Positions 8,037-25,044 of a stretch of DNA of 25,044 nucleotides are shown piece by piece. The notes beneath the pieces were generated by a model that was given only the letters and a program-made list of their open reading frames with translations, ran no database searches and was not told the origin of the DNA. Origin of the DNA: a virus. Taxonomy: Duplodnaviria; Heunggongvirae; Uroviricota; Caudoviricetes. The stretch covers positions 1-25,044 of IMG/VR virus record IMGVR_UViG_2529293240_000020; one strand, written 5' to 3'. Each line of letters starts with the position of its first letter. The first letter of the stretch is position 1. A program made the translations under genes and the position numbers.

Positions 8037-8347
8037 CAGCCTTTCTCCGCTTCCCGGACAATCAGATTCGGCTCTGCCATCAGGCGGGTGGCAACCGCAG
8101 CGCTCACCGCCACATCCTCACCGATATGTGACCAGAAACGGCCACAGCGCCAGAACCCGTTTTCAGACACGGCCCTGACGTTCAGCCGGACAGGGACGTC
8201 ACCCTGTACAGCAACCGGGTCTTCAGCCGGACGTGGTTCATTCGCCTGACCGTCAGCCACAATAACGTCTGCCAGCGGTGCCGGGTTTTCCTGTGCAGCG
8301 CTGTTCTTTGCGGCTTTCGCGCCTTTGGTTTCTGCTTTTTCACTCAT
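8036..8347 (-). CDS. Mu-like phage protein (FluMu N-terminal-domain-like), Ala/Pro-rich N-terminus, 103 aa
   Basis: Small ORF directly after the major head gene, typical of Mu-like head modules. Confidence 0.45.
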   Translation of the reverse strand: MSEKAETKGAKAAKNSAAQENPAPLADVIVADGQANEPRPAEDPVAVQGDVPVRLNVRAVSENGFWRCGRFWSHIGEDVAVSAAVATRLMAEPNLIVREAEKG

Positions 8348-8418
8348 GACTCTGCCTTTTAAAAGGCAGTTAAAAGGGCATTCACAGCACCTTTTAACTG
8401 CGGTTTACGGATGACGGG
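8348..8418 (-). promoter_or_regulatory. Structured intergenic region after the major head gene: perfect 18-bp palindrome CTGCCTTTTAAAAGGCAG (8351..8368) and a 9-bp-stem hairpin GTTAAAAGG-N12-CCTTTTAAC (8368..8397)
   Basis: Inverted repeats read directly from the sequence; an mRNA stem-loop after the capsid gene is a common phage arrangement. Confidence 0.35.
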
Positions 8419-9324: not shown

Positions 9325-9331
9325 GTGTTAC

Positions 9332-10288
9332 TTACTCCTGTTTCGGTTTAGCGGCGAGGAACTCTTCCCCGGTAATACCCATGCTGCGACACATCGCCAG
9401 TTCGGCATCGGTCAGTGTCTGCGCGGGTTTATCCTTGCCCTGGCTGGGCTTGTCGTTGTTAACCAGCGGCTGTGCACCTTTGGTGTACTCCGCAAACTGT
9501 TTGCGGCCTTCTTCCGTGCGGCAGGTGGCAAGGAACATGTCACGGTTTGCCGGGGCGACTTTTCCGGCCCCGATGGCCGCATCCACAAGCGCCTCGGCTT
9601 CCTTCTCTTCCAGTTGCTGAAGGCGTTTTTCTGCGGTTTCGGCACGGTTCAGTGCCAAATTGTGGGTTTCCACCGGCACAAACTTCGTCAGGTCAGGTGT
9701 CTGTGCGCGGTTCAGCGCCACCTGTTCGTTCTCCTGAAGTTGTTTAATGGCGGCCACGGTATCGTCCACCGTGGCGGATTCAGCCAGCCCAAGCAGGCCG
9801 GTGATTTGCACAGGTACTGTCATCGGGTTTTTCTCCGTATTCAGTGCAGGAAAATCCAGGTTAGGTTTGTTGGTCAGCCCGACGCTGGACAGGCGCGTCA
9901 CCGCACCGTCTGCGTCATGGAAAAACGCCGGGCTGTAATAGCGGTAGCGGCGCTCGCTCAGCATCCACCGGGCGGACTCACTCCAGACAACACGCCCTTC
10001 AATGGTGCCGCTGTCCGTCACCCGCAGTGCTTCCACCCAGCCATACGCCGGAGCCTCTTCACCCCGCGGGCCTTTAATTTCGGTGGCATGTTCAATGTCC
10101 ACCGGAATGTTGATGTCGGACGAACGGGCAACCACCTCATGTGGATTGCGGTTCATCCACGTCCGGCCATCGCGCCCGGTGAACTCACCCGCAGGAACGA
10201 GTTCAAGCCATTCCGGCAGTTGAGCGGGTGTCAGCTCAGGGATGGGTTCTGGCAGGGAAAAACACAGCGCCAGCAGTTCCGGTTGCAT
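9332..10288 (-). CDS. Head maturation protease / scaffold protein, Mu gpI-like, 318 aa
   Basis: Protease-like N-terminal half and coiled-coil, charged scaffold-like C-terminal half (EKRLQQLEEKEAEALV...); GGAG SD 9 nt upstream of ATG 10288. Confidence 0.7.
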   Translation of the reverse strand: MQPELLALCFSLPEPIPELTPAQLPEWLELVPAGEFTGRDGRTWMNRNPHEVVARSSDINIPVDIEHATEIKGPRGEEAPAYGWVEALRVTDSGTIEGRVVWSESARWMLSERRYRYYSPAFFHDADGAVTRLSSVGLTNKPNLDFPALNTEKNPMTVPVQITGLLGLAESATVDDTVAAIKQLQENEQVALNRAQTPDLTKFVPVETHNLALNRAETAEKRLQQLEEKEAEALVDAAIGAGKVAPANRDMFLATCRTEEGRKQFAEYTKGAQPLVNNDKPSQGKDKPAQTLTDAELAMCRSMGITGEEFLAAKPKQE

Positions 10289-10331
10289 GTCAGTCTCCGT
10301 CGTCTGGGGTTACCGACGGTCAGTATGCGGA

Positions 10332-10367
10332 AGGCAGAAAAAAAGCCGGATTTACCGGCTTCACTGA
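10332..10367 (-). promoter_or_regulatory. Copy B of a ~35-bp repeated dyad element (AAGCCGG-ATTTA-CCGGCTT hairpin plus T-run on the minus strand), 50 nt upstream of the protease gene start
   Basis: Near-identical to 17871..17906 (two substitutions and one A-run length difference); minus-strand RNA would fold as a 7-bp stem, 5-nt loop, followed by UUUUUU. Confidence 0.45.
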
Positions 10368-10502
10368 AAACGGGGAAATACCCCCTTCAAAACCCCTTCA
10401 AAAACGCCACGGACGCTTCAAAAAAGCCAGGGTGTACATTCATGCCATCAGAATAAAAAACGCGTTTCTGATGCGTTTCAGGGGCATTTACGGCGGGGAG
10501 GG

Positions 10503-11255
10503 TTATTCACTGTTAAAACGGGCCTGTCTGGCCGCCAGCTCCTGCTCACGGTTTATGCCGGGATTGTAGTTCCAGCCCGGATCAATCCCTTCCGGCACCT
10601 CTTCCTCTTCGCCCGTACGTTTGTTCACCCAGCGGACAGTTCTGATTTCCGGCGCTTCGGTGTGAATGGTGCCCTGTGCCGCCAGTTGCGCATACTCACC
10701 ACGGCTGACCTGACGGATGGTGCATTTGCAGCCCCAGCCGTTAGGGGCAAAATGCGTCTGCCAGAACGGATGCTCTACCGGCAGACACAGACGCGCCCAT
10801 TTCACATGCTCCACCCGGTGCTCACGGGATGGCCCCAGCTCGTACATCAGATACGGCATGGCCTGCTTTGTCCGCTGAATGCGTTCCCACTGGCCCGCCG
10901 CGCGGGCGGTGCGCATGTTGGTATCAAAAATCGTGCGGAGGCGGCGGTCGCTGCCCAGTTGCACGGTGCGGGTTTCACCCGTCAGCGGATCATCCATCTC
11001 CTGTACGCCCCACCATCCGCGTTTTATCAGCAACGGTTGCAGCATCTCCCGGAACTCGCTGAACGTCTGCCCGCTTTGCAGGGCGTCTTCCACAAGGGCT
11101 TTCACATCCGACAACAAATCCAGTTGCAGCATTCTGGCCACGGGGAAGCTGTACCGGTGCTCTTCCCGCCACACATCCCGGTAATCAAAACCGGGACGCA
11201 GCTTCTTCGCCTTCAGCCACGCCAGCGCCTCTTTCGGGATGAGGGTTTCACGCAT
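10503..11255 (-). CDS. Head morphogenesis protein, Mu gpF-like, ~250 aa from ATG at 11255
   Basis: Position after the portal gene; ATG at 11255 overlaps the portal stop by 8 nt (the track ORF extends to 11312). Confidence 0.65.
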   Translation of the reverse strand: MRETLIPKEALAWLKAKKLRPGFDYRDVWREEHRYSFPVARMLQLDLLSDVKALVEDALQSGQTFSEFREMLQPLLIKRGWWGVQEMDDPLTGETRTVQLGSDRRLRTIFDTNMRTARAAGQWERIQRTKQAMPYLMYELGPSREHRVEHVKWARLCLPVEHPFWQTHFAPNGWGCKCTIRQVSRGEYAQLAAQGTIHTEAPEIRTVRWVNKRTGEEEEVPEGIDPGWNYNPGINREQELAARQARFNSE

Positions 11256-12819
11256 GAGCAGTGTCTCCCAGCGCACGCGCCTTAAAGCACACCTCCGCCA
11301 GTTGCAGGGCAAAGTCGTCCGCGTTCAGCGTTTCCTGAAGCTCAGGCAGGCGTTTCAGAAAGTCATCAAAACTGTCGCACTCCTGCGCCAGTGTCAGCAC
11401 CGGGTTCGTGAACGCCTCGCCGGTTTTCTGCCAGTCACGCAGGGCATCATCCACCATCTGTGCCAGTTCGTCGGGGTGTTCCCTGTTCAGGGCGACGCGC
11501 TCGCGGTTCATCGCCATATCACCCGGCATCCCGGCAGACACCGGATGCAGAACATCAGCCCCTTCGTCTGGCTCAGCCAGGCCGAACCGGTCCCGCAGCG
11601 CCGACTCCTGAACCCGCATCCCCCGGTCAATCAGCGCCACCAGAGCATCTGTCAGCGCCTTCAGATCTTCGGCTTCACTGATACGCAGAACAACACGGGG
11701 GTAGTGCGCCTGTGGCCCGTAGTTGGCCTCGATGTAGGGCCGCACCAGATATTCATTCAGCGTGTTAGCCAGCTGCCGCGCGTCCCAGCGCACAATGTCC
11801 ATGCGCACCTGATTGTGCACGTCCGCCTGTGAACGCGAACTGCCGTTATCCGTGGTCATGGTCTGCCCCAGCACAGCCTTACTGATTTGCGCATCACACC
11901 ATTCCGCCATTTCACGGAACAGTGCGCCGCCGTTATTCCGGCTGGCGGTTTCCTGCATCTCCAGTTGCATGGACTGCGGAATGGCACACCCGGCATCCGA
12001 GGCAATGGAGGCAATCGCATCAATCAGTACGCGGATTTGCTCCTCCGTGGCGTTGGGACCGTATTTCCCCACCGTGACCGGAATGCCGAATTTTTCCGCG
12101 AATGCCCACCAGTCACGCACGGTAAAGGATTTCAGCATGTACATTACCGCCACCAGACGGGCCAGACCGTTACGCAGCGGCAGACCGGATTTCAGGCGCG
12201 GCTGGTGAACAATGAATTTTCCCGGTGTCAGTGGTACACCATCCACCGGTTCATCATCCGTCAGCAGGCGGAACTGGCGCAGTGTGGGCTTTTCGGCTTT
12301 CAGAAAACGGGGATCAACCCACTCATAATCACGGGGCACCCAGTGATTGTTACGGGTGTTCCACAGAATTTCACAGACCGCCACGCCTTTTCCCAGCCCG
12401 TCGAGCAGATCAAACATCAGCTCGGGGATTTGCGGGGCTTCCATCAGCGCACGGATGGCGTCCGCCAGCTGCACGTCAGCATCGTCATCACTGGCCGCCA
12501 CCACCACCGGTTCGATACCCGCCACCGTCAGCTTGCGGGTGCGCAGTACCGAGGCGTAATGCAAATCGCGTTCTTCCATCTCTTCAGCAAGGATAAAAAA
12601 ATCACGCGTGATACCGTCGGCGGCATTGCGCAGAATACCGGCCAGTCTGCCGGGATTCAGCCCGGAGGCGATGCTGATGCCCGGAGAGGCCGGACGCACA
12701 CCCGCCTGACGCGGACGGGCCTGTACTTCATCGAGCCTCTCTTTTTTCAGCGTGTCTTCCTCACCGGTTGCCGGGTTCAGCAGACGGCGAACGGCCCCGG
12801 CCAGTTGTTTCAGGTTCAC
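11248..12819 (-). CDS. Portal protein, Mu gp29-like, 523 aa
   Basis: Size and position immediately after the large terminase gene with ATGA-type overlap. Confidence 0.8.
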   Translation of the reverse strand: MNLKQLAGAVRRLLNPATGEEDTLKKERLDEVQARPRQAGVRPASPGISIASGLNPGRLAGILRNAADGITRDFFILAEEMEERDLHYASVLRTRKLTVAGIEPVVVAASDDDADVQLADAIRALMEAPQIPELMFDLLDGLGKGVAVCEILWNTRNNHWVPRDYEWVDPRFLKAEKPTLRQFRLLTDDEPVDGVPLTPGKFIVHQPRLKSGLPLRNGLARLVAVMYMLKSFTVRDWWAFAEKFGIPVTVGKYGPNATEEQIRVLIDAIASIASDAGCAIPQSMQLEMQETASRNNGGALFREMAEWCDAQISKAVLGQTMTTDNGSSRSQADVHNQVRMDIVRWDARQLANTLNEYLVRPYIEANYGPQAHYPRVVLRISEAEDLKALTDALVALIDRGMRVQESALRDRFGLAEPDEGADVLHPVSAGMPGDMAMNRERVALNREHPDELAQMVDDALRDWQKTGEAFTNPVLTLAQECDSFDDFLKRLPELQETLNADDFALQLAEVCFKARALGDTAHA

Positions 12820-14351
12820 AGTAAACCTCCCTCATTTTTCAGGCCACGCGTCAGCTTCATCTGGCGGCGTGCGTTGCGCTCTTCCGGTTTCGCCGGGCGG
12901 TTCAGGCGGTGCAGCTCGTAACGGTGGCAGTCATCTTTACTGGCAAGGAAGCCCAGGAAAATAGCCACAGCGGCGTCGCCGTGACGCTTGCGGCCATCGC
13001 TGCCTTTAGTACGGGCATCGTCAATACCGGGAACGCCACGCAGTAACTGAATGGCCCCGAGGTCATTGATCACGTCTTCATGCTTCGGAAGGATCAGCTC
13101 ATCATCTTCAAACGCCGCACGGAAACGGGGCATGTTTTCGCGGTAGAACGCCACGGACAGCATCACCTGTTCCACCTCGTCGCCGTATCGTTCTGCCGCC
13201 TGTTCTGCCAGATACTGACCATTACCCCGCGCATCCATTTTGATACCGTCACGACGGGGCAGACGATCGCAAAGCCAGAACAGCACCTGCTCCTGCTGTT
13301 TAAACGGCACATTGGCAAGCTCAACCAGAAACGGCACCTCGCGGGTGGTGTCGTCGTTCACCGTCACCGGGGCCAGCACGGTCAGGTCACCCGAACGCGC
13401 AAAGTCTTCCCCCAGACAGTGGCGCAGATTCTTCGGGAGTTTTTCCAGCTCGGGGCGCACCACCGTTTCCAGCCATTCCCGGATATCTGCCCGGCGCTGA
13501 CTTTCCGTCAGTGCGTTAAATTCCGGTGTGCCGGTAAAGCGCAAGACTTTCCCGGTGCCACGGGCCGCACGTTCACGCAGTGAGCGGGGGATATACGTGC
13601 CGCCGCCGTTTTTCGGGACGCAGTAATATTCCTCCAGCGCATCTTCGCGGGTGGCGGTATTTCGCAGCAGGCCTTCTTTCCATTCGGCCTCGGCTTCCGG
13701 TGACCACACCATGCCGCGCACCTGACAGATACGCCGGTACAGCCCGTCATTGCAGGCATCATCCAGCGTGATGGTGTGAATACGGTAATCTTTTTTGCCT
13801 GCGCGGCTTTCCTGAATCAGCTGGTTAAACGGGTTGTCCACGCCGTCATGGGTGGAGATAAGGCGAACCTTACCGCCCCACGTGGTCAGTGGTGTGACCG
13901 CTTTGAGTACCTCATCCAGCTTTTCATGAAACGCCGCTTCGTCGATGGTGACATTCCCCTGCATCCCGCGAATGTTGCCCGGATTACTGGACAGCGCCTT
14001 GACCTTAAATCCGCTGGCGAAGTACACGACGAACGTCAGAATGTCCTTGTCTTCGTCGGTGATCACTTCCTCGCGGATTTCTTCCGCGGCTGCATTAAAC
14101 GCTTTTGCCCACATCGCCACGGCGTCGATAAATTCGCGGGCCATCTCCTTATTCGAACCGATGTAAAAGTGATCGCATCCGCCGTTTTCCTTCTTCAGTG
14201 ATGCGGTCAGTGCCGCATCTGCCGCTTCCGCCCAGGTTAAACCGGTACGGCGGGATTTTTCGGCGATTTTCAGTTTTGAATCATCCGCCACCCAGCGTTT
14301 CTGATACGGCAGCAGAACATCGGATTCACTGAATGCGTTCATCTGTGTCAT
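12816..14351 (-). CDS. Terminase large subunit, Mu gp28-like, 511 aa
   Basis: Size, ATPase-like N-terminal region and acidic nuclease-like C-terminal region, position upstream of the portal gene. Confidence 0.8.
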   Translation of the reverse strand: MTQMNAFSESDVLLPYQKRWVADDSKLKIAEKSRRTGLTWAEAADAALTASLKKENGGCDHFYIGSNKEMAREFIDAVAMWAKAFNAAAEEIREEVITDEDKDILTFVVYFASGFKVKALSSNPGNIRGMQGNVTIDEAAFHEKLDEVLKAVTPLTTWGGKVRLISTHDGVDNPFNQLIQESRAGKKDYRIHTITLDDACNDGLYRRICQVRGMVWSPEAEAEWKEGLLRNTATREDALEEYYCVPKNGGGTYIPRSLRERAARGTGKVLRFTGTPEFNALTESQRRADIREWLETVVRPELEKLPKNLRHCLGEDFARSGDLTVLAPVTVNDDTTREVPFLVELANVPFKQQEQVLFWLCDRLPRRDGIKMDARGNGQYLAEQAAERYGDEVEQVMLSVAFYRENMPRFRAAFEDDELILPKHEDVINDLGAIQLLRGVPGIDDARTKGSDGRKRHGDAAVAIFLGFLASKDDCHRYELHRLNRPAKPEERNARRQMKLTRGLKNEGGLL

Positions 14352-14929
14352 ACACTAATCCCCAGAATTTCACGTTTGATGGTGTCAGCCGCACCGCCTG
14401 ACAGACCGCCCGCTCTGACCAGCTCTTCGGTTTTCTCTGCCATTTCCTGCGCAAACGCATCGCGGATTGCTTTTTCGCGTTTATGGCTGGTCATGGCTGC
14501 CGCTTCCAGACGCTGGGCAACCAACGCCAGTTGCCCCAGCGCCTTCGGTGCAACAGGTTTGTCGTCTTCTGTCATCGACATGGACGTTTCAAAGGCCAGC
14601 GTTTTTACAAACTCCATCAGCAGCCTGCCGACATCTAACGTCGGCGCGGAACCCAGCTTTGCCGCCCAGACTTCGGCCATTTCGCGGGAGGCGCGGATTT
14701 TTGCCCCGACTTTTTCCATGCGGCTGGCATAGCGGTTTAAGCCCGTCCGGCTTAACTGCATCCCCCCCGGCAGGTTATGTTCGTCAATCAGGGCATTGAT
14801 GGCTTCGCGGATTTCTTCCTGCGTGTGCCGCTTTTCCCGCAGCATCTGGTGTAACTGCTCACGGATGCTGTCCGGGAGTAAATCCACTTTGGAAAGACGG
14901 CCACGGGTGGGGCGTTGTTCATTTTCCAT
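14348..14929 (-). CDS. Putative small terminase / DNA-binding protein, Mu gp27-like, 193 aa
   Basis: Immediately upstream of and overlapping the large terminase gene; charged helical protein. Confidence 0.5.
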   Translation of the reverse strand: MENEQRPTRGRLSKVDLLPDSIREQLHQMLREKRHTQEEIREAINALIDEHNLPGGMQLSRTGLNRYASRMEKVGAKIRASREMAEVWAAKLGSAPTLDVGRLLMEFVKTLAFETSMSMTEDDKPVAPKALGQLALVAQRLEAAAMTSHKREKAIRDAFAQEMAEKTEELVRAGGLSGGAADTIKREILGISV

Positions 14930-15206
14930 CTTCTGTCCTCTGTGTTTTCAGACCGGCGTATATTTCTTCACGAACGGACTGAATATCCTTACCCAGCAGC
15001 TTCCACAGCCGCGCATATGCCGGTGATGAACGCAGGGCACGTTTCACGGGGGTATCCGGTGCATCCGGGTTCCAGGGCTTTCCGGTCTGTTGTTCGTATG
15101 TACGGACAATGGCGTTTTGCTCGATATCTGCCAGCACAAGGCAGTACGCCAGCTGCCGCACGACGGCCCGTTCTCCACGACTTAACGGCTTCAGTTTTCG
15201 GGCCAT
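14919..15206 (-). CDS. Hypothetical phage protein, 95 aa, basic
   Basis: ORF with ATG start, overlaps the downstream gene start by 11 nt, same-strand operon context. Confidence 0.4.
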   Translation of the reverse strand: MARKLKPLSRGERAVVRQLAYCLVLADIEQNAIVRTYEQQTGKPWNPDAPDTPVKRALRSSPAYARLWKLLGKDIQSVREEIYAGLKTQRTEDGK

Positions 15207-15208
15207 GT

Positions 15209-15502
15209 TCAGTCCCTCGCACGGGGTTTTTTAACGCCCGGCACACCGGACAGGCCGTTTGCCACATCCTCGCCGCTGCCGGTGATTTCAGCCACGTAAC
15301 AGCCGCCCACATCAGACAGACGAACCAGCCCCTGCTCGCGCAGCCATGCAAGCTGGGTGCGCACCACATCACGGGATACCTTATGACCGTAGGCCTGAAG
15401 GCAGGTCTGCAACACGGATTCATTCGCGCTGTCGCCACAGTCCAGCAGGGAACGCAGCAACACCAGACGACGGTCTTCAGTGAGGATCTCTTTCATCGCC
15501 AT
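15209..15502 (-). CDS. Hypothetical phage protein, 97 aa, possible winged-helix DNA-binding fold
   Basis: ORF in operon context; ATG at 15502 or 15496. Confidence 0.4.
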   Translation of the reverse strand: MAMKEILTEDRRLVLLRSLLDCGDSANESVLQTCLQAYGHKVSRDVVRTQLAWLREQGLVRLSDVGGCYVAEITGSGEDVANGLSGVPGVKKPRARD

Positions 15503-15806
15503 TAATTTTTTCCTTTAATTCGTTCTCTAATAACAAATCGCTGATGCGGGATACCTGGCGGATGGATGGCCCCAGCTCTTTGATTTCACCCCGCAGGTTG
15601 CTGATATCCAGTTGCAGGCGGTGAAATTCATTGCGGTCGGGTAGCTGATTCACCAGGCCTTCCATCACCGACACGCGGGAACGCAGCGAATCAAACTCTT
15701 CGCGTTTGACGTAAGTCTTCGCCAGAATCAACTGGAGAAAGTTAATCCCCGTCATCAGCAATGCCCACAGAATGGGCCAGTTGGCTCTGATCACTTCCCA
15801 GGACAC
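15477..15806 (-). CDS. Membrane protein with N-terminal transmembrane helix (WPILWALLMTGINFLQLIL) and coiled coil; possible lysis accessory protein (Mu gp25/releasin-like or i-spanin-like). Start ambiguous: GTG 15806 or GTG 15794, the latter forming a GTGA overlap with the traR-like stop
   Basis: Hydrophobic N-terminus followed by a heptad-like charged region; position in the lysis cassette. Confidence 0.4.
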   Translation of the reverse strand: MSWEVIRANWPILWALLMTGINFLQLILAKTYVKREEFDSLRSRVSVMEGLVNQLPDRNEFHRLQLDISNLRGEIKELGPSIRQVSRISDLLLENELKEKINGDERDPH

Positions 15807-16018
15807 GTTTTCCTCCTGCGCTCCCGCGCCTGCTGACAGTCAATACAGGTCACCACATCAGGCAGTGCCGCAAGGCGCTGTGCCGGAATAACGTTCCCGC
15901 AGTCATTGCAGAAGCCCCGACTGTGGGGTGCTTCTTTTATCCGCATCAGCCAGGCGTTAACGACGTCCTGACGTTCGTTTAAAACCACTTCACTGATGCG
16001 GTCGGTTTCATCGGTCAT
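15791..16018 (-). CDS. TraR/DksA-family C4 zinc-finger protein, 75 aa
   Basis: CNDCGNVIP...(17 aa)...CIDCQ four-cysteine motif and size typical of phage TraR-like proteins; ATGA overlap with the upstream gene. Confidence 0.7.
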   Translation of the reverse strand: MTDETDRISEVVLNERQDVVNAWLMRIKEAPHSRGFCNDCGNVIPAQRLAALPDVVTCIDCQQARERRRKTCPGK

Positions 16019-16623
16019 TTCGGCCCCGCTGATATTTTGTGACAGCTCGATTTGCTGTAACGGGCAAAGCCGTCAAGGGTTCTTACCCCGAGATAGCCCA
16101 GCGCCGGGGTAAACAACATCAGCGTGATATCCCAGTCCGGTGACGGCATATGCAGCGTGATACCGTTCGCACCGGCAACCGCACCGGCAATCTGGCCACA
16201 GGAGAGCAACAGCACATAGGCCAGACTGCTGTAACAGGACAGACGGGCCAGCAACGGGCGCGTCTGGCGCACATAGCTGTCCGTGGCGTTGTCACCGTTG
16301 CGGATGGTTTCCTGTTGTTCGTGGTGAGCGGCCTGCTGGTCAGCCAGCACCAGCTTCTGCCGCTCCACCTCCAGCTGTTGCAGCTGGACTTTCAGGGTTT
16401 CCAGCTGCACCAGTTGCTCCGGTGACAGCATCACCAGTTTTTGTTCCAGAATGCGTTGCTGTTCAGCCACCGGCAGGCTTTCCCGGACGCTTTCCACCAT
16501 ACCGGCCACCGAGTCAGCGGCGGCAGATGTGCTGCCACCAAACCAGCGCCCGACGGAACGAATCAGCCCCGGCCCGGCTTTCAGCAGAACGGAGGCGATG
16601 CCTGAAAGGGTTAACGGGTCCAT
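16015..16623 (-). CDS. Phage membrane protein, 202 aa: soluble coiled-coil N-terminal region and hydrophobic C-terminal segments; possible holin-like or lysis-associated protein
   Basis: Hydrophobic stretches LSCYSSLAYVLLLSCGQIAGAVAGA and ITLMLFTPALGYLGV; position downstream of the endolysin gene. Confidence 0.45.
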   Translation of the reverse strand: MDPLTLSGIASVLLKAGPGLIRSVGRWFGGSTSAAADSVAGMVESVRESLPVAEQQRILEQKLVMLSPEQLVQLETLKVQLQQLEVERQKLVLADQQAAHHEQQETIRNGDNATDSYVRQTRPLLARLSCYSSLAYVLLLSCGQIAGAVAGANGITLHMPSPDWDITLMLFTPALGYLGVRTLDGFARYSKSSCHKISAGPK

Positions 16624-17021
16624 GAATCCCCCTTATGAAAACGGCGCTGATGTTTATAAAGTGCCGCACAAAAGATACCGCCCAGCCAGAACGCCAGCTG
16701 ATAAGGCTCCTTCAGATAAAGAAGGCCGAATGTCAGCATGAAAAAACCAACGGCCCAGACCACCCATGACCACACGACAATTCGAAGGGAGGCGGCCCGG
16801 AAACGCCTTTTGGGTTGCAGGCGATAAGGTACGTTGCCCAGCTGGAAACTGTGAATCAGGCAGAGTGTCGCGCCGTATGCCAGCACCATGACCGCAAACG
16901 CCCGCCATCCGGCAAAACAGCTCGCCAGAAAAAGTACTGCCGACAGCCCCAGAAACGACCACTGGCACAACATAAAGCGGGAGTAAATAACGCGAACAAA
17001 AAGACTATTCATTCTGTGCAT
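16611..17021 (-). CDS. Integral membrane protein with four predicted transmembrane segments, ~136 aa from ATG 17021; holin candidate
   Basis: Four hydrophobic helices; the likely start overlaps the stop of the upstream small ORF. Confidence 0.45.
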   Translation of the reverse strand: MHRMNSLFVRVIYSRFMLCQWSFLGLSAVLFLASCFAGWRAFAVMVLAYGATLCLIHSFQLGNVPYRLQPKRRFRAASLRIVVWSWVVWAVGFFMLTFGLLYLKEPYQLAFWLGGIFCAALYKHQRRFHKGDSWTR

Positions 17022-17232
17022 TGAGTTTTTCCTTGTACTTCTGGCACTGCCAGAAAATGTCCCGTGTATCCACGGTGTTCCAGCCACGCATGTAGTAGCT
17101 GGCGTGTGTGCCGTCATGGCCGGTATAGTCCAGCGGTTTCGGAGGCGGACCTCCGGCCATACGGTGCAGAACCTCCTGACGCAGGCGGTCGCGTCGCCCG
17201 GCTTTCAGTGAGGCATCCCAGCCTTTGCCCAT
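17005..17232 (-). CDS. Hypothetical small phage protein, 75 aa, no transmembrane segment
   Basis: ATG one nucleotide after the endolysin stop (TGA-T-ATG); operon context. Confidence 0.4.
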   Translation of the reverse strand: MGKGWDASLKAGRRDRLRQEVLHRMAGGPPPKPLDYTGHDGTHASYYMRGWNTVDTRDIFWQCQKYKEKLNAQNE

Positions 17233-17233
17233 A

Positions 17234-17821
17234 TCACCCCCGCGTGGCGGACGGCGCGTTGTCGATGATTTCCAGACAGGCGTCGGTCAGTTCTTCCATG
17301 CGGTTAAACCATCCGTTCAGGTATTTGCCCTGGGCGGGTTTTGATTTGATGATGTCGGCATAAAAGCGGGAACGACGGACAATACAGCGGGTCAGCAACC
17401 AGTCCGGGTTAGACAGGTTCACGGCCCTGCGGGTACGCGGGCCGATGATGCCGTCAGCATCCACATCAGCGGCTTCCTGCAAAATTCTGATGGCTTTTTT
17501 AACGCCATGCTGAACCGCCGCATCGAACACAAACAGCGCTACACCATCAGGCCACTGCTCACACCCGGCTGGCAGCCAGTAATCGCGCCAGTAAATCTGC
17601 GCAGCCTGTTCGCGGGTCAAATCTTTGATGCGGGTATCCGGTTTGCCGTCTCCGTTGACGTCGGTTTTGCCGTCAATCACACCGTCGCGGCGGTCAGAAA
17701 TGCCGTATCTGGTTTCGCCGCCACGGTCAGTGGGGTCATTGACATAGACGCCTTCGATATCGGGACGCAGAATAAAATTCAGCGCATACTCAAAGGCCGG
17801 GGAGAATTTTTGATTTTCCAT
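17234..17821 (-). CDS. Endolysin: glycoside hydrolase family 108-type lysozyme domain with C-terminal peptidoglycan-binding domain, 195 aa; no N-terminal signal-anchor
   Basis: Motifs EGVYVNDPTDRGGETRYGI, REQAAQIYWRDYW and DGIIGPRTRRAV are characteristic of GH108 plus PG-binding endolysins. Confidence 0.75.
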   Translation of the reverse strand: MENQKFSPAFEYALNFILRPDIEGVYVNDPTDRGGETRYGISDRRDGVIDGKTDVNGDGKPDTRIKDLTREQAAQIYWRDYWLPAGCEQWPDGVALFVFDAAVQHGVKKAIRILQEAADVDADGIIGPRTRRAVNLSNPDWLLTRCIVRRSRFYADIIKSKPAQGKYLNGWFNRMEELTDACLEIIDNAPSATRG

Positions 17822-17833
17822 AAAAGCACCTGT

Positions 17834-17860
17834 GAAGCAGATTTAAACGTGGTCTGCTTC
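17834..17860 (-). promoter_or_regulatory. Perfect 8-bp inverted repeat GAAGCAGA-N11-TCTGCTTC, 13 to 39 nt upstream of the endolysin start codon
   Basis: Read directly from the sequence; lies in the presumed 5-prime UTR or operator region of the lys operon. Confidence 0.3.
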
Positions 17861-17870
17861 ATGGTGCCGG

Positions 17871-17906
17871 AGGCATAAAAAAAGCCGGATTTACCGGCTT
17901 CATTGA
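17871..17906 (-). promoter_or_regulatory. Copy A of the ~35-bp repeated dyad element (hairpin AAGCCGG-N5-CCGGCTT plus T-run on the minus strand), beginning 6 nt after the Mor/C-like stop codon
   Basis: Near-identical to 10332..10367; has the structure of a Rho-independent terminator for the minus strand and sits at the distance from the lys start expected for an activator site. Confidence 0.5.
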
Positions 17907-18356
17907 TTAAGGACGTCGTGGCGGACGACGAACGGGGTGAGGCAGGTTCGGGGAGTGGTAAAACAAATCCGGCTGGTATTTATTACACTCCAGACGCCGC
18001 ATCCGCTTGATGGCCTTGTAGACGGTTTTATACGTCACCCCGTAACGCTGAACCAGTTCAGGAATATTATGGCCGTTAAAATCACGCCAGATACGCATAT
18101 CCCGGACAAGATTCTCCAGAATATTCCCCCTCGGAACATAAACCTGCATCCCGCCGATATAGCGACAAATCGCCACAACCAGCTCAAGGGAATGGGCAGG
18201 GTCTGCGCCAATCCTGGCCAGCTCTTTACGCAGCAGTGCGTTCAGTTCAGAAAGTAACGCCGGATAAGCCGTGTTTTCCTGGTAATCGTTAAGGTATTCC
18301 AGAACGCTGTCGTCCCGGAAGTCTTCGAATAAATCCTGCTCTTTCATCTGTTTCAT
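17907..18356 (-). CDS. Mor/C-family transcriptional activator (Mu middle/late gene activator family), 149 aa
   Basis: C-terminal HTH-like region (IPELVQRYGVTYKTVYKAIKR) and size typical of Mu Mor/C proteins; position between the gemA-like gene and the late genes. Confidence 0.7.
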   Translation of the reverse strand: MKQMKEQDLFEDFRDDSVLEYLNDYQENTAYPALLSELNALLRKELARIGADPAHSLELVVAICRYIGGMQVYVPRGNILENLVRDMRIWRDFNGHNIPELVQRYGVTYKTVYKAIKRMRRLECNKYQPDLFYHSPNLPHPVRRPPRRP

Positions 18357-18904
18357 ACAGCAATTCTCCCGCTGTTTCGTGCGCGGGCATACGCACTGGT
18401 CAGTGCATCATAGCCGCGCAGCTCCTGCCCGGTTTCGCTCACAGGTAAAGGCACACCATGTCGGGCAAAGGCTTCACGGATGCAGCGCATATGCCACTGT
18501 TTGAGCGTTTCGAGCACAACCTGCAACGATTCCCCGTGACACCAGGCCAGCGTGGAAACACCCTGACCGCCATTACGTCTGGCTGTCAGGCGTTCAACGT
18601 ATTTGTCCAGCGCAGCGTCGCTGATATCGGAGACGAAACCATCAAGGAACATCTGCTGCCAGATTTTATAAATCTTCTCGCGCGGTGTGACATGCCCCTT
18701 AAAGCGACGGCGGGGATGTTTTTTCTGCTTCTTAAAACCGCGCTCTTTCATGGCATCGAGCACACGTTCCAGTTGTGCAACGGAAAGCTCGCGGCAACTG
18801 GTTTTGCCCGTGCACTGCACCAGAAAGGTGCGGTAAGTGTCATCGTCGAGTTGCAGGTCACGACGGGCAACATGAATTAATTTAATCAGGGATGTGCAGC
18901 TCAT
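18353..18904 (-). CDS. Mu gp16/GemA-like regulatory protein, 183 aa
   Basis: Sequence character (LIKLIHVARRDLQLDDDTYRTFL...GKTSCRELS) and position immediately upstream of the Mor-like gene with ATGA overlap, as in Mu. Confidence 0.55.
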   Translation of the reverse strand: MSCTSLIKLIHVARRDLQLDDDTYRTFLVQCTGKTSCRELSVAQLERVLDAMKERGFKKQKKHPRRRFKGHVTPREKIYKIWQQMFLDGFVSDISDAALDKYVERLTARRNGGQGVSTLAWCHGESLQVVLETLKQWHMRCIREAFARHGVPLPVSETGQELRGYDALTSAYARARNSGRIAV

Positions 18905-19217
18905 TATGTCCCCCCGGATTTAAAATTAATTCGGTGTTGAATAGCTCTTTACTCATTCGATGTAGCACATCGAGGGCGGCAACTGCCGCTACTTTATCCT
19001 GGCTGGCAATGATTTTTCGTAATTCCTCAATAATCCAGGCTGGACTTAATGATTCGGCAATCATCGTGCGTTTTTCTGAAATTAAATTTTCTCTGGCCTG
19101 CTCATAGCGTTGGTATACGACATTATCCAGAAAATCATTTACCTTTTGTTCTGACATGCCACTGGAAATTAAGGTTGCAGCCATTAAATCAGCATCAGTA
19201 ATCATCTGTATTTTCAT
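18882..19217 (-). CDS. Hypothetical early-region protein, 111 aa, AT-rich
   Basis: ATG at 19217; its first 23 nt overlap the reconstructed stop of the IS911-disrupted gene; its end overlaps the gemA-like start. Confidence 0.45.
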   Translation of the reverse strand: MKIQMITDADLMAATLISSGMSEQKVNDFLDNVVYQRYEQARENLISEKRTMIAESLSPAWIIEELRKIIASQDKVAAVAALDVLHRMSKELFNTELILNPGGHNELHIPD

Positions 19218-19301
19218 CTCTTAATACCTTTTCTGGATTCAGGAAAACTGCGCCGGTAACCTCCAGCAGATTCACCAGAGCATGGGTCGCAATTGCTGCA
19301 G
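19195..19301 (-). pseudogene. 3-prime fragment of an early gene disrupted by IS911 (reconstructed ~118-aa ORF)
   Basis: Removing IS911 and one CAG copy joins 20554..20809 to ..19301 in frame: ...NGDCLA/AAIATHALVNLLEVTGAVFLNPEKVLRDENTDDY*. Confidence 0.5.
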
Positions 19302-19373
19302 TGAAGTGGCACACTGAATTTGGCCACCTGAACAGAGGTGATATGCTCACCTCAGAACAACACAGGTGCTCCA

Positions 19374-20542
<1,169 letters not shown>

Positions 20543-20550
20543 CCACTTCA

Positions 20551-20809
20551 CAGCCAGGCAATCACCGTTGTAGCAGGCATTGTCGATAACGCTTTTTATT
20601 ATTCTTATCAGCGATGGCAGTGTGGTGTTTTCCAGAATTTCCAGCCTGAACTGCTTCAGCCAGTATTCATATTCAGCTTCATCAAATGGACGCTCACCCA
20701 TCAGTTCCGTCAGTGTTGCATCGGCCTGCTCTGGCGTATATCCACTGACAACCAGTTGCGCCCGCATTTCAGCCCGATATTTCGGGTCGTCATAAATACG
20801 TTTACTCAT
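20551..20809 (-). pseudogene. 5-prime fragment (86 codons) of the early gene disrupted by IS911; the remaining 24 codons of track ORF 20477..20809 are read from the IS911 end
   Basis: ATG at 20809 overlaps the upstream stop (ATGAGTAA); the frame runs into the IS terminal repeat at 20550. Confidence 0.5.
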
Positions 20810-20984
20810 TTCTTAATGCATCCTCACAATAAAAGATTTCACCGGGATAACGTTTTTGTATGCGCTCCATCACCTGCATACATGCCTGCTCTGTGGGCCA
20901 GATTTTTTCTGTTACAGGTATGGCATCGCAGGCATCATTCCCACAGGTGCCAACCAGCAGGACAAAGCCAATTGACTTAATCAT
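20802..20984 (-). CDS. Small exported protein, 60 aa: N-terminal signal peptide (MIKSIGFVLLVGTCG, possible lipobox) and four cysteines
   Basis: ATG at 20984 overlaps the upstream stop (ATGATTAA); hydrophobic N-terminus followed by Cys. Confidence 0.45.
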   Translation of the reverse strand: MIKSIGFVLLVGTCGNDACDAIPVTEKIWPTEQACMQVMERIQKRYPGEIFYCEDALRNE

Positions 20985-21516
20985 GCCCGCTGATTTCCTG
21001 TGTTTCCGCCGGAACCGGTGAATAATCAAGAATGAGATAGCGCAGGACGTGGTCGGTGATATTCCAGCCACTGGAGCCACAAATAAAACGACCCAGCCGG
21101 ATATCGATATACGCCATCACAAAACGGGGCATTCCCTGTTTGCACATCTCGTCATCCACTTCAGCAACGATGTAAACCGGCTCGCAGGTCAGTACGCCTG
21201 TCGCAAATTCTTTTGCCAGTGCCGGAATGGCGTTACCTTCCAGCCAGGGCAAAGAACGACGGAACGTGCACCATGCAGCATCATCAACCCCTGGCAGCTC
21301 CGTTGTGTTTCGCCTTACAGGTGACGTCAGACGAGGGCGCGGAACGTCATAAAATCCGTTGCATTCGGTGAGCACTCCGGCATCAACCGCATCACGCAGG
21401 AAATACACCATTGACGAGGGCAGCATATTCATTTTTTCAGCCAGAACCCCGCAGGTCAGACGCCCGTAAGCCCGTAATAATGTGCTGACACCGTTCAGAA
21501 CTTTTGCATCAATCAC
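20977..21516 (-). CDS. Hypothetical protein, 179 aa, GTG start with GGAGG Shine-Dalgarno 8 nt upstream
   Basis: GTG at 21516 lies 3 nt after the upstream TAA; the SD is embedded in the last codons of the upstream gene. Confidence 0.5.
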   Translation of the reverse strand: MIDAKVLNGVSTLLRAYGRLTCGVLAEKMNMLPSSMVYFLRDAVDAGVLTECNGFYDVPRPRLTSPVRRNTTELPGVDDAAWCTFRRSLPWLEGNAIPALAKEFATGVLTCEPVYIVAEVDDEMCKQGMPRFVMAYIDIRLGRFICGSSGWNITDHVLRYLILDYSPVPAETQEISGHD

Positions 21517-21519
21517 CGG

Positions 21520-22068
21520 TTATTCCTCCGTCAGTGCCACAAATTCAGAATGTTTAATGCGCTGGCATTCGGCAGGAACCGGTCCCTTAACCTCACCATC
21601 CAGCAGGCACACCTCAAACAAAATGCCGAATCCGTCACGGCTGTGGTGCATCGTCCAGACTGATTTGAGATCAAACATGTTGGGTACAACATCAACCCCG
21701 AGTTCATTACACAACCAGACCGGGAATGTGGGATATTTCCGGAGTTGCTCTTCATGTTCCTGAATAAGCGTCGCATTGTTTCGGCCTTCCGGTGTTGTTA
21801 TATCCGGTACAACGCCATAAAACTGAAATCCACCAATAAACAGTCCGTCTGATTTACCACGCCATAATTCCGGCGCTAATTGATTCATCCAGATACATTC
21901 AACCCGTTCATACCCTCTGTTACTGACAAGGGAAACACCGTCTGCGCCAAACGCACGCTGCAATGAGCAGATGATTTTGTCACGCTTAACAGAAACATCT
22001 TTCAGCCAGCGAATCGTATAACCGTTAGCGGCTGCGTCACTCAGTTTAAAATAAGCATATGCTTTCAT
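21520..22068 (-). CDS. Hypothetical protein, 182 aa (MKAYAYFKLSDAAANGYTIRW...)
   Basis: ATG at 22068 with GAGG 8 nt upstream; the track ORF extends to 22125 but those ATGs lack a comparable SD. Confidence 0.5.
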   Translation of the reverse strand: MKAYAYFKLSDAAANGYTIRWLKDVSVKRDKIICSLQRAFGADGVSLVSNRGYERVECIWMNQLAPELWRGKSDGLFIGGFQFYGVVPDITTPEGRNNATLIQEHEEQLRKYPTFPVWLCNELGVDVVPNMFDLKSVWTMHHSRDGFGILFEVCLLDGEVKGPVPAECQRIKHSEFVALTEE

Positions 22069-22299
22069 ATTCATTTCCTCTGGTCCTGATTCAGGCGCGA
22101 GCAATCCCCTGACGCATCGCGCCATAATTAAAAGAAAGTGAATTAATTAAATATTCGTCGTGGTATTAAATACCGGCTTCCTGTTCAAACGGAATAATAG
22201 AAAAATCTTCAATGCCTGATTTAACTGTAATTCCGGCGACACCTGCGACTGCTTTCGGCTCCAGTAAAATCGCTTCCTTGTTGAGGTAATGACTCCAAC

Positions 22300-22803
22300 T
22301 TACTGATAGTGTTTTATGTTCAGATAATGCCCGATGACCTTGTCATGCAGCTCCACCGATTTTGAGAACGACAGTGACTTCCGTCCCAGCCTTGCCAGAT
22401 GTTGCCTCAGATTCAGATTATGTCGCTCAATGCGCTGAGTGTAACGCTTGCTGATAACGTGCAGCTTTCCCTTCAGGCGTGATTCATACAGCGGCCAGCC
22501 ATCCGTCATCCATACCACGACCTCAAAGGCCGACAGCAGGCTCAGAAGACGCTCCAGTGTGGCCAGAGTGCGTTCACCGAAGACGTGCGCCACAACCGTC
22601 CTCCGTATCCTGTCATACGCGTAAAACAGCCAGCGCTGACGTGATTTAGCACCGACGTAGCCCCAATGTTCGTCCATTTCAGCGCAGACAATCACATCAC
22701 TGCCCGGTTGTATGCGCGAGGTTACCGACTGCGGCCTGAGTTTTTTAAGTGACGTAAAACCGTGTTGAGGCCAACGCCCATAATGCGTGCACTGGCGCGA
22801 CAT
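22300..22803 (-). CDS. insB: IS1 InsB (transposase catalytic part, made as an InsAB-prime fusion by frameshift)
   Basis: Sequence characteristic of IS1 InsB (...[28 protein letters not shown]...). Confidence 0.8.
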
Positions 22804-22997
22804 CCGACGCCATTCATGGCCATATCAATGATTTTCTGGTGCGTACCGGGCTGAGAGGCGGTGTAAGTGAACTGTAGTTGCCATGTTTTACGGCAATGAG
22901 AGCAGAGATAGCGCTGATGTCCGGCAGTGCTTTTGCCGTTACGCACCACGCCTTCAGTAGCGGAGCAGGAAGGACATCTGATGGAAATGGAAGCCAC
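22722..22997 (-). CDS. insA: IS1 InsA (zinc-finger DNA-binding regulator), 91 aa
   Basis: [40 protein letters not shown]... characteristic of IS1 InsA. Confidence 0.85.
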
Positions 22998-23196
22998 GCA
23001 AGCACCTTAAAATCACCATCATACACTAAATCAGTAAGTTGGCAGCATTACCGAACTTCTGGAGTGCAGAATCACCAATCCTAATATTACTACTAAATAG
23101 CTGCGCCTAATAACGCGACACCCGCCGTTTACTGTCTGGTGGCTTAACCTGCAAGGGCTGGCTGAAAGTGGGACACTATGCCGCGCAGCTATTTAG

Positions 23197-24438
23197 TCAC
23201 CCAACTAGCTTCATTCCTTTTATCCCACCTTCAATCATGCTTCCACGATCCGCTGCCATCACAAAATTTGCCCACCATTGCATCATCGGGCGACGCTGTT
23301 CCAGGTAATCGCTGCGGTTATAAGCACGACGAACCTCATTCTTATCCACATGGGCCAATGCTGCCTCAATGGCATCAGGCGGAAAGCCTTGTTCATTAAG
23401 AGCCGTACTGGCAATTGATCTCAGACCATGCGAAACAAGCACACCACCAAAACCTGCGCGTTTTAGTGAGGCGTTAACAGTCTGACTGTTCATAGGCTGG
23501 TTGGGCTTGATACGGCTAGGAAAGATAAATTCTCGGTTGCCGCTTAGCGGTTTCATCATCTCCAGCACAGCTATTGCTTCATCTGACAATGGAACAGTAT
23601 GGTCGCGGTTCATTTTCATGCGTGCTGCGGGAATCTTCCACTCTTGCGCTTCTATGTCTACTTCTTCCCAGCGAGCTTCAGCCGCTTCGGCAGGGCGGGT
23701 AATAGTAAGAAGTTGCCACATGAACAGGCAGCGTGTGGAAAGGCTAATGCTGGCTGTTCGCATTGTCTGCATCAGTTGAGATAGCTGATCCGGTCGAATG
23801 CTGGGCATGTTCTTTTTCTGAGGCTTTTCGAAGGCTTTACCGATATTAACGCTGGGAACAGCATCAATCAGCCCTGTGTTCTGGGCATAGATCATGACCT
23901 CATTAATACGTTGACACAGGCGACGAACCGTTTCCAGTGCTCCTCTGGCCTGAACCGGTTGTACGGCCTGAACCAGTGTATGAGCTTTAATATCTGTAAC
24001 GCTAACGTCGCCAATCGCAGGAAAGACATCTCTTTCAAGAGAGCGCCAGATATCTTCCGCATAGTCCTCTGTCACACTGGCTTTCTTCACATTCCACCAA
24101 CGTTCAGCTACGAGCTGGAAAGTATTGGTTTTGGCTTCCAGCGAACTACGCAATTGTTCTTGCTGATGTTCCTGCGGATCAATCTGTTTAGCTAGGAGTG
24201 AGCGGGACTCTGCACGGTAGTTTCTGGCATCGGCAAGGGTAACTGACGGGTAAGGGCCTATGCTTTTCTTTGCTCGTTTCTTGGTGACAGGGCGAATGTA
24301 GCGAAACTGCCAGATTTTACTCCCGCTGGATTTAATGAGTAGCTCAAGGCCATCGCCATCATAGAGAACGTAGTCCGCTTCCTTGGGTTTAGCAGATTCG
24401 ATTTCCTTAACGGATAGAGGTTTGGTTTGTCTTGCCAT
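23197..24438 (-). CDS. int: Tyrosine recombinase / integrase, P4-type (CP4-57 IntA-like), 413 aa, apparently intact
   Basis: Downstream of ssrA in the same orientation with a 204-bp gap; catalytic H-x-x-R (HGLRS) and Tyr (AYNRSDY) motifs; N-terminus MARQTKPLSVKEIESAKPKEADYVLYDGDGLELLIKSSGSK typical of P4-family integrases. Confidence 0.85.
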   Translation of the reverse strand: MARQTKPLSVKEIESAKPKEADYVLYDGDGLELLIKSSGSKIWQFRYIRPVTKKRAKKSIGPYPSVTLADARNYRAESRSLLAKQIDPQEHQQEQLRSSLEAKTNTFQLVAERWWNVKKASVTEDYAEDIWRSLERDVFPAIGDVSVTDIKAHTLVQAVQPVQARGALETVRRLCQRINEVMIYAQNTGLIDAVPSVNIGKAFEKPQKKNMPSIRPDQLSQLMQTMRTASISLSTRCLFMWQLLTITRPAEAAEARWEEVDIEAQEWKIPAARMKMNRDHTVPLSDEAIAVLEMMKPLSGNREFIFPSRIKPNQPMNSQTVNASLKRAGFGGVLVSHGLRSIASTALNEQGFPPDAIEAALAHVDKNEVRRAYNRSDYLEQRRPMMQWWANFVMAADRGSMIEGGIKGMKLVG

Positions 24439-24458
24439 TGCCGGGTTTCCATAGTTTT

Positions 24459-24509
24459 AGGCACCTCAAAGACAATATAGCTTTATGAAGTGCCTAACAA
24501 GGTGCCTAA
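24459..24509 (-). promoter_or_regulatory. Three copies of an 8-mer (AGGTGCCT / GTGCCTAA) in the ssrA-int intergenic region; candidate arm-type or operator sites and promoter region of int
   Basis: AGGCACCT at 24459..24466 (inverted), GTGCCTAA at 24490..24497 and 24502..24509, within 70 bp upstream of the int start. Confidence 0.3.
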
Positions 24510-24563
24510 AAGGATCGGATTTAATTAGTTGGCATCAGACTTCGCGGGACAAATTCGGGGCAC

Positions 24564-24596
24564 AAAAAAGCCCGCAGGGCTTGCGCCGTGCGGGCT
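24564..24596 (-). terminator. Rho-independent terminator downstream of ssrA (GC-rich 11-bp stem with one mismatch, then UUUUUU on the minus strand)
   Basis: GCCCGCAGGGC-TTGC-GCCGTGCGGGC followed by the complement of the A-run at 24564..24569; lies ~45 nt past the tmRNA 3-prime end. Confidence 0.5.
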
Positions 24597-24642
24597 CTTA
24601 GGACTTCATCGGATGACTCTGGTAATCACCGATGGAGAATTT

Positions 24643-25005
24643 TGGTGGAGCTGGCGGGAGTTGAACCCGCGTCCGAAATTCCTACATCCTCGGTACTACA
24701 TGCTTAGTCAGTCTTTACATTCGCTTGCCAGCTGCGGACGGACACGCCACTAACAAACTAGCCTGATTAAGTTTTAACGCTTCAACCCCAGGCAGGGCTT
24801 CCACGCGATCTCTTTTGGGTTTGACCTCTCTTGATCCCCGTCCTAAGAGCGGAGGCTAGGGAGAGAGGGCTCTAAGCAGGTTATTAAGCTGCTAAAGCGT
24901 AGTTTTCGTCGTTTGCGACTATTTTTTGCGGCTTTTTACGAGGCCAACCGCCCCTCGGCATGCACCTTGGGTTTCGCAAATCCCGTCGAATCCAGAATCA
25001 GCCCC
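24643..25005 (-). ncRNA. ssrA: tmRNA (SsrA, 10Sa RNA), 363 nt
   Basis: Reverse complement reads GGGGCTGATTCTGGATTCGACGGG ... GCAAACGACGAAAACTACGCTTTAGCAGCTTAATAA (tag-peptide ORF) ... GGACGCGGGTTCAACTCCCGCCAGCTCCACCA, matching enterobacterial ssrA as recalled. Confidence 0.9.
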
Positions 25006-25044
25006 AATGTGTAAAGGTAAGTATACCAGATTTATGAGCGCCAT

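Follow-up and report, generated by a model that had tools for sequence, protein, structure and literature searches.

IS1 transposes replicatively and makes deletions adjacent to itself, and IS1-mediated inversions and deletions are a standard route of genome scrambling and reduction in Shigella. Large inversions and translocations mediated by insertion sequences are reportedly described for S. flexneri in the genome papers of strains 2a 301, 2457T and 5b 8401. In classical IS1 rearrangements, the 9-bp target duplication is lost at the recombined copy, and a duplication may be found split across a pair of inverted copies. Mu-like prophages of Escherichia and Shigella are characterized by a common gene order and by the Pfam families Gam, GemA, Mor, Mu gp27, portal, Mu F, gpT, gp36 and gp41. 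P4-type islands at ssrA, such as CP4-57 of E. coli K-12, place a tyrosine integrase immediately downstream of ssrA.

The window, which here denotes the whole stretch of 25,044 nucleotides analyzed (bases 1-25044 of contig AFOW01000037.1, from the 2011 draft assembly GCA_000217895.2), contains representatives of all three systems: an IS1 copy lies between a Mu-like prophage remnant and what is left of a P4-type island at ssrA. This IS1 is very likely one endpoint of an IS1-mediated inversion of ∼110 kb that brought the decayed prophage beside the ssrA integrase. The event is an IS-mediated inversion of a kind long known in Shigella and is conceptually nothing new; as in the known S. flexneri cases, IS copies bound a large inverted stretch of the chromosome, and genes have been lost locally.

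The IS1 element and its flanking 9-mers

The element and its borders are composed as follows.

22285-23052, minus strand: intact IS1 of 768 bp, left end abutting gam, right end abutting the ssrA island remnant
22722-22997, minus strand: InsA, open frame, 91 aa
22300-22803, minus strand: InsB, open frame, 167 aa
22276-22284: left flanking 9-mer CCTTGTTGA, target site within gam
23053-23061: right flanking 9-mer GAACTTCTG, original IS1 target site in the ssrA island

Structurally, the element conforms to classical IS1 in its length of 768 bp, its imperfect terminal inverted repeats of 23 nt (22285-22307 and 23030-23052, 87% complementary) and the arrangement of its insA and insB' frames. Its sequence identity to IS1 copies elsewhere in S. 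flexneri is 99.5-100%, in keeping with the ≥99.5% identity to other Shigella IS1, and the identical element in strain J17B matches the Pfam families DDE_Tnp_IS1, Zn_ribbon_InsA and HTH_Tnp_IS1. The flanking 9-mers CCTTGTTGA and GAACTTCTG, which an earlier sequence-only reading of this DNA had described as different, match at 1 of 9 positions, and the 9-bp target duplication of a simple IS1 insertion is absent. Neither 9-mer, nor its reverse complement, has a further copy within the whole window.

Three other insertion elements interrupt the prophage, two of which served as controls for a normal insertion signature (IS911 and IS600).

19302-20550, plus strand: IS911, simple insertion, 3-bp duplication CAG on both sides
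2684-3946, minus strand: IS600, between gp41 and the tape-measure gene, simple insertion, 3-bp duplication ACC on both sides
1-2391, plus strand: IS66-family element truncated by the contig start, in the Mu tape-measure gene, with matches to Pfam DDE_Tnp_IS66 and others

The perfect duplications that the sequence-only reading had ascribed to IS911 and IS600 are thus present, and relatives lacking either element align straight through both insertion sites; the IS911 site is empty in CP026836.1 and UGYT01000001.1. The IS600 insertion is common to S. flexneri 2850-71 and, judged from gene calls, UGYT01000001.1, which indicates that these prophage copies are orthologous rather than independent insertions. 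The IS66-family element is complete in J17B, where the remaining tape-measure gene follows beyond it, and is absent at this place in 2850-71. A control of the same family is provided by another IS1, within this prophage in UGYT01000001.1: CAAAATCCG flanks it on both sides as a perfect 9-bp duplication, so that ordinary copies of IS1 in these genomes do keep theirs.

A simple insertion whose 9-bp repeats later mutated can be dismissed, as 8 of the 9 positions differ although the surrounding DNA is 99.9-100% identical to that of relatives, and the two flanks belong to different loci. The absence of the duplication is what is expected of a recombined copy, and membership in the IS1 family is unaffected by it. 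The element most probably lacks a duplication because its flanks are two different IS1 target sites joined by recombination; compared with classical IS1, nothing about it is mechanistically new, the duplication being missing since this copy is a recombinant.

Loci of origin of the two flanks

To the left of IS1, the window is occupied by prophage genes.

22166-22282, minus strand: 3' remnant of gam, last 38 of 174 codons plus the stop codon
2392-22284, minus strand: Mu-like prophage remnant delimited by Pfam matches, continuing past the window start into the tape-measure gene

The gam remnant translates as NKEAILLEPKAVAGVAGITVKSGIEDFSIIPFEQEAGI followed by the stop, which is the C-terminus of the complete Gam encoded in CP026836.1; full-length relatives match Pfam Phage_Mu_Gam. 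With decreasing coordinates, the early genes after gam are followed by gemA, mor, lysis, terminase, portal, head, sheath and tube genes and gp41. The middle and late gene set is of Mu type, with Pfam matches to Mor, GemA, gp27, Mu portal, Mu F, gpT, gp36, gp41, sheath and tube, and both the gene order and these families, together with Gam, agree with the Mu-like prophages of Escherichia and Shigella. The prophage is 97.9-100% identical to CP026836.1 and UGYT01000001.1 and about 96-97% identical to the prophage of E. coli FDAARGOS_943; its late region is 98.4% identical to CP026802.1 and 99.8% to 2850-71. Searches of the phage collection returned no close relative of this Mu-like prophage, the matches being mostly to IS600.

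The IS1-free prophage of FDAARGOS_943 reveals what the junction has replaced. There, CCTTGTTGA runs directly into the remaining part of gam, and beyond gam, as also in CP026836.1 and UGYT01000001.1, lie three small ORFs, kil, B (an AAA ATPase), A (the Mu transposase), ner and c. The window prophage is without this left 6.07 kb, comprising c, ner, A, B, kil, the three small ORFs and gam codons 1-136, and transposase A, ATPase B and a repressor or ner gene at the left end were not found within the window. As the sequence-only reading had noted, the early operon begins without repressor or transposase genes; the phage relatives do carry the module (c, ner, A and B), whose absence from every relative would have spoken against that reading. 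Since these genes are missing here and present in close relatives, the prophage is a remnant of a Mu-like phage and is not functional. Unlike its relatives, which occupy varied insertion sites (e.g. fepB and yclC), the window copy is a dead remnant that has lost its left 6.07 kb including the transposase and is broken by IS911, IS600 and the IS66-family element.

To the right of IS1, a short piece from the 3' edge of the P4-type island leads into the integrase gene and ssrA.

23053-23196: ssrA island remnant of 144 bp, between IS1 and the integrase stop codon
23197-24438, minus strand: P4-type tyrosine integrase, 413 aa, Pfam Arm-DNA-bind_3, Phage_int_M and Phage_integrase
24643-25005, minus strand: ssrA (tmRNA), the attachment site of the island, detected with ARAGORN, tag peptide ANDENYALAA

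The remnant thus has exactly the 144 bp past the integrase stop that had been noted before. A protein identical to the window integrase adjoins ssrA in many Shigella assemblies, and the region 23053-25044 has a 96.5% match to the intact island of E. coli RMDEC465. Two IS1-free E. coli strains, FEX669 and RMDEC465 (the latter at ssrA), encode integrases 96-98% identical to that of the window, followed by the same 144 bp. In both, AT-rich island DNA ending in TTAATATTAACTTT immediately precedes GAACTTCTG, and the island body carries genes for a DUF2290 protein, a DEAD/DEAH helicase and a 1283-aa protein. The arrangement of integrase and ssrA is that of CP4-57 in K-12. However, the integrase allele differs from IntA, the intact relatives carry the DUF2290/helicase cargo, and only the integrase and 144 bp survive here.

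Each flank of IS1 accordingly continues into its own locus in IS1-free relatives, where the two flanks are not contiguous. This supports the view that IS1 marks a rearrangement junction between two unrelated loci, and it separates the case from that of a mutated duplication.

Gene order around the junction in J17B

The junction lies in a draft contig and runs through an element present in very many copies, so a chimeric join through repeated IS1 had to be considered. Assembly GCA_000217895.2 is listed as S. flexneri J1713 (PMC6397287), and CP100042.1 is the closed chromosome of S. flexneri serotype 3a strain J17B, obtained with PacBio RS II and Illumina reads (PMC10732043). CP100042.1 matches window positions 10978-25044 with 0 mismatches and 1 gap, with an identical junction, and positions 1-14440 at 99.92% identity. 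An independent closed chromosome with the same junction and 0 mismatches over 14 kb leaves mis-assembly with next to no probability. The integrase-IS1-gam junction was found in J1713 and J17B, and none of the E. coli complete genomes carries it; J1713 and J17B are probably the same strain, the names looking like transcription variants of each other. The integrase, gp11 and gp41 are each located at only one place in CP100042.1, and a tandem-duplication junction was rejected on this ground.

The original location of the prophage can be read from relatives. In other S. flexneri, it lies within yclC, a ubiD-like decarboxylase gene (subunit C), between mutS and rpoS. UGYT01000001.1 has the 5' part of this gene directly against the Mu left end, with the gene for the flavoprotein subunit B before it, and the gene order in E. 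coli O121 is pcm, nlpD, rpoS, marR, B, C, D, ygbN ... mutS. Together, these place the prophage insertion site in the mutS-rpoS region, its home lying ∼70 kb of K-12-equivalent chromosome beyond gabP. From left to right, the prophage runs toward mutS, that is, toward ssrA on the K-12 map, so that its right end faces ssrA. In the window, it is the 3' part of gam that is joined to the left end of IS1, and the late genes read away from IS1. This geometry is expected from an inversion and not from a deletion.

The inversion was deduced from the gene list SFJ17B_1645-1826 of J17B (Data Set 1, PMC10732043), compared with the K-12 order. The list reads as follows.

SFJ17B_1645-1648: smpB, one hypothetical ORF, intA and a 'putative transposase', which is the window IS1
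SFJ17B_1649-1697: Mu remnant, Mom last
SFJ17B_1698-1710: UbiD-family 3' fragment (3' part of yclC), bsdD, ygbN, ygbM-I, pphB, mutS
After mutS, first stretch: fhlA, hyp, hyc, asc, hypF, norWV, srl, mltB, recA, recX, alaS, csrA
After csrA: gshA, luxS, emrAB, proXWV, nrdFEIH, two hypothetical genes (ygaM, ygaC)
After ygaM and ygaC: alaE, stpA, ygaP, ygaV, yqaE, csiR
SFJ17B_1787-1789: amino-acid permease (truncated gabP), a lone 'putative transposase', nlpD
After nlpD: pcm, surE, ispF, ispD, ftsB, cysCND onwards

The block from the truncated gabP (gabP') through ygbN and the Mu remnant is reversed relative to K-12, and the DNA outside it is colinear with K-12. It comprises 139 genes between the ssrA-integrase-IS1 side and the second transposase beside nlpD, and J17B therefore shows a reversed segment between two annotated transposases with colinear DNA outside, as expected of an IS-bounded inversion. 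The inverted segment is estimated at ∼110 kb, made up of ∼71.5 kb of K-12-equivalent DNA and the prophage remnant, which adds ∼35 kb including its IS elements. The second transposase (SFJ17B_1788) is probably also an IS1, its label 'putative transposase' being shared by the window IS1 and by one IS66 ORF. A text search of the main text of the J17B paper yielded no mention of an inversion between the ssrA-island IS1 and Mu gam (PMC10732043).

The same gene order bears on a simpler history, in which the Mu-like prophage lay near the ssrA island and a single deletion from the left end of IS1 took out the island body and the Mu left end along with all DNA between them. Such a deletion would leave no target duplication and would account for the absence of both the Mu left end and the island body at the junction; IS1 classically makes adjacent deletions, and one of 639 bp occurred at this same IS1 in strain Shi06HN006. 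However, the prophage right end is still joined to the 3' part of yclC, bsdD, ygbN and mutS, and behind these the entire block of recA, alaS, nrd and gabP' runs opposite to its order in K-12. In a colinear ancestor, moreover, the Mu right end and not the left faces ssrA, an orientation from which no deletion could produce the observed one. Since a direct deletion from IS1 to gam would remove alaS and recA, their presence inside the inverted block excludes it, and a deletion history as a whole is highly improbable. Inversion is thus retained as the explanation. The sequence-only reading had proposed an IS1-mediated deletion or recombination: recombination, in the form of an inversion, stands, whereas a local deletion between neighbors does not, given the J17B gene order and a prophage that was never in or next to the ssrA island. 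The locus is a clean worked example in which the missing duplication rightly flagged a breakpoint, and the breakpoint is an inversion endpoint rather than a local deletion.

Deletions nevertheless accompany the inversion. The same reading had the Mu left end and the island body removed at the junction; both are indeed lost and the deletions are real, but they are located at the former flank of IS1 and at the far endpoint of the inversion, and neither inversion end retains the Mu left end. In the J17B gene list, none of the Mu early genes, the 5' part of yclC, subunit B, marR or rpoS lies between SFJ17B_1787 and SFJ17B_1789. Clusters with BSR ≥0.8 in 2457T and CCH060 and <0.4 in J17B were taken from Data Set 3 (PMC10732043). 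Among them are csiD, lhgO (FAD-dependent oxidoreductase), gabD (aldehyde dehydrogenase) and ygaQ (alpha-amylase-domain protein), as well as two sigma-70 fragments, read as rpoS, which is split in 2457T, and an M23 peptidase, read as the 3' half of nlpD. Two lost blocks can be inferred. The first would comprise the island body and all that follows from ileY, by way of ygaQ, csiD, lhgO and gabD, as far as the 5' part of gabP; in the second, gam codons 1-136 would be followed by Mu B, A, ner and c, the 5' part of yclC, pad1, rpoS and, at its far end, the 3' part of nlpD.

Consequently, rpoS has probably been lost in J17B. The apparent removal of rpoS at the far end of the rearrangement is a practical side effect: if true, it could influence stress and acid-resistance phenotypes of the Sf3a archetype J17B, which serves as a reference strain in vaccine and challenge studies. 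A loss of rpoS or of the 3' part of nlpD goes without mention in the J17B genome paper (PMC10732043). MuA-, MuB- and Gam-type clusters appear in the LS-BSR table of clusters present in 2457T and J17B, and 2457T carries several Mu-like remnants at other loci; pieces of the Mu left end, or another Mu-like remnant, may therefore survive elsewhere in the J17B genome.

Left partners of the island IS1 and the route of the inversion

Comparison of the ssrA locus across S. flexneri reveals an old right junction and a changing left one. The right junction, ATTACC followed by GAACTTCTG, is identical in at least five chromosome arrangement types. This shows that IS1 inserted long ago in the P4-type ssrA island at GAACTTCTG, 144 bp downstream of the integrase gene, and that the arrangements differ in the partner to which its left end was later joined.

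J1713 and J17B: gam of the Mu-like prophage, with the partner point at gam codon 136/137
2850-71 and 71-2783: region 131 bp upstream of fucP
K-227, K-272 and 89-141: ygaC, with a second, inverted IS1 bearing the matching 9-mer AACCGACCG
Shi06HN006: a 38-bp DUF2290 remnant, then an IS3-family element, ileY, ygaQ, csiD and lhgO, in K-12 order

Of these, the Shi06HN006 arrangement, with a loss of just 639 bp beside the left end of IS1, seems nearest to the ancestral one. The ygaC arrangement has the segment between ygaC and the truncated gabP inverted, and an oppositely oriented second IS1 lies 6 kb away, with AACCGACCG on its right side. A 9-mer split in this way across an inverted IS1 pair is the textbook signature of an IS1-IS1 inversion, and K-227 and 89-141 thereby reproduce the split duplication of classical IS1 rearrangements. 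In these two strains, gabP' ends at IS1 with GGTGATCAAC, and the IS1 copies on either side of the small inversion are distinguished by positions 507 and 711, a pattern that fits the recombination of two distinct IS1 alleles better than the duplication of one.

For the window, the favored route to the inversion would be homologous recombination of the island IS1 with a second, oppositely oriented copy at the gam site. This second copy would have reached the gam site either by inserting there or by deleting up to it, and separate IS1-adjacent deletions of the classical type would have removed the two flanking blocks. Allelic differences among the aligned copies point in this direction. The window copy has C at IS1 position 121, near its left (gam) end, where all other copies at the same integrase site have T; this difference from all four other island alleles favors homologous recombination, and the sister inversion of K-227 and 89-141, with its allele differences between copies, is likewise taken to reflect it. 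The 121 difference is synonymous in InsB, and the C variant is rare, with an exact 200-bp match in only one E. coli record. As a single substitution, it could also be a later mutation, and replicative transposition is thus compatible with it.

In a one-step alternative, the island IS1 would have transposed replicatively within the chromosome into gam in inverse orientation, generating a second copy together with the inversion and with no need of an earlier IS1 at gam. Replicative transposition is established for IS1, and the model predicts the observed structure, with gabP', the old left flank, on the second copy and the gam 9-mer on the island copy. Under this model, both copies should have started out identical to the island IS1, yet the window copy carries 121C, and the copies of the K-227/89-141 inversion differ at two shared positions; both objections are weak, as later mutation or gene conversion could have produced these differences. 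Replicative transposition is accordingly a minority possibility, perhaps one to be kept in mind rather than preferred, and recombination between two pre-existing, oppositely oriented IS1 copies is the reading followed here. As a candidate for such a copy, the IS1 between the early ORFs of the UGYT01000001.1 prophage was rejected: its orientation is direct relative to the island IS1, and recombination there would therefore delete essential genes.

On balance, the comparison leans toward a broader role for the IS1 beside the ssrA integrase, as a recurrent pivot of S. flexneri chromosome evolution that has acquired at least five left partners and, in J17B, is linked through the inversion to the deletion of rpoS and the 3' part of nlpD.

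Erosion of the ssrA island

Intact relatives of the ssrA island are present in E. coli RMDEC465 (positions 1445-8693 of locus L035) and FEX669 (positions 1-5693 of locus L001). In both, the genes beside the integrase encode a DUF2290 protein, a DEAD/DEAH helicase and a 1283-aa hypothetical protein, which may constitute defence-type cargo. All of this cargo is gone from S. flexneri, except for 38 bp in strain Shi06HN006. E. coli DX6 carries a different IS1 variant (91% identical; positions 6001-6771 of locus L034); ∼44 bp lie between it and the related integrase (93% identical) upstream, and past the insertion is a truncated ygaQ. This locus appears to be the equivalent island, and DX6 is an independent instance of IS1 eroding such an integrase island.

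The Mu-like prophage in other strains

In UGYT01000001.1 (locus L027), the left end of the orthologous prophage is retained, but an IS600-like element (L027 2684-3839) interrupts the gene for its A transposase. The same prophage also harbors an IS1 between two early ORFs (L027 7329-8096), flanked by a perfect duplication; therefore, the prophage was already dead prior to the rearrangements. S. flexneri 2850-71 (loci L004 and L016, contig AKMV01000036.1) carries this prophage ∼100 kb from ssrA, on its other side, and its integrase-IS1 segment is joined to fucP; explaining this arrangement needs at least two nested inversions.

Two further features lie in the prophage in the window:

1-2391, IS66-family element; the contig starts inside it, and it splits the Mu tape-measure gene
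10326-10367 and 17865-17906, direct repeat of 42 nt (90% identity) with an internal hairpin of the type AAAAAAAGCCGGATTTACCGGCTT

In J17B, the IS66-family element is whole (three ORFs) and is followed by the remainder of the tape-measure gene, while the gene in 2850-71 is free of this insertion. The 42-nt repeats resemble an intergenic, terminator-like element present twice.

The far end of the inversion

The other inversion end lies outside the window, at genes SFJ17B_1787-1789 of CP100042.1, where a lone transposase is located between a truncated gabP and nlpD. Published J17B tables score two sigma-70 clusters and one M23 peptidase cluster as absent from this strain (PMC10732043), which we read as corresponding to rpoS and to nlpD (its 3' half), respectively. 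The main text of that genome paper makes no mention of rpoS (PMC10732043).

The IS1 copy and its junction with the island

One ORF crosses from IS1 into the island:

22878-23084, + strand, 68-aa ORF starting within the right end of IS1 and reading into the island remnant

Several draft assemblies annotate this ORF as a gene, a call that is almost certainly an annotation artefact; here, it served as a junction-specific query for look-ups. The IS1 copy itself is marked by a C at its position 121 (window 22405), which is T in every other integrase-site copy and in the further IS1 copies of S. flexneri that were compared. The change is synonymous, leaving InsB unaltered, and the first 200 bp of this IS1 are matched exactly in only one E. 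coli complete-genome record.
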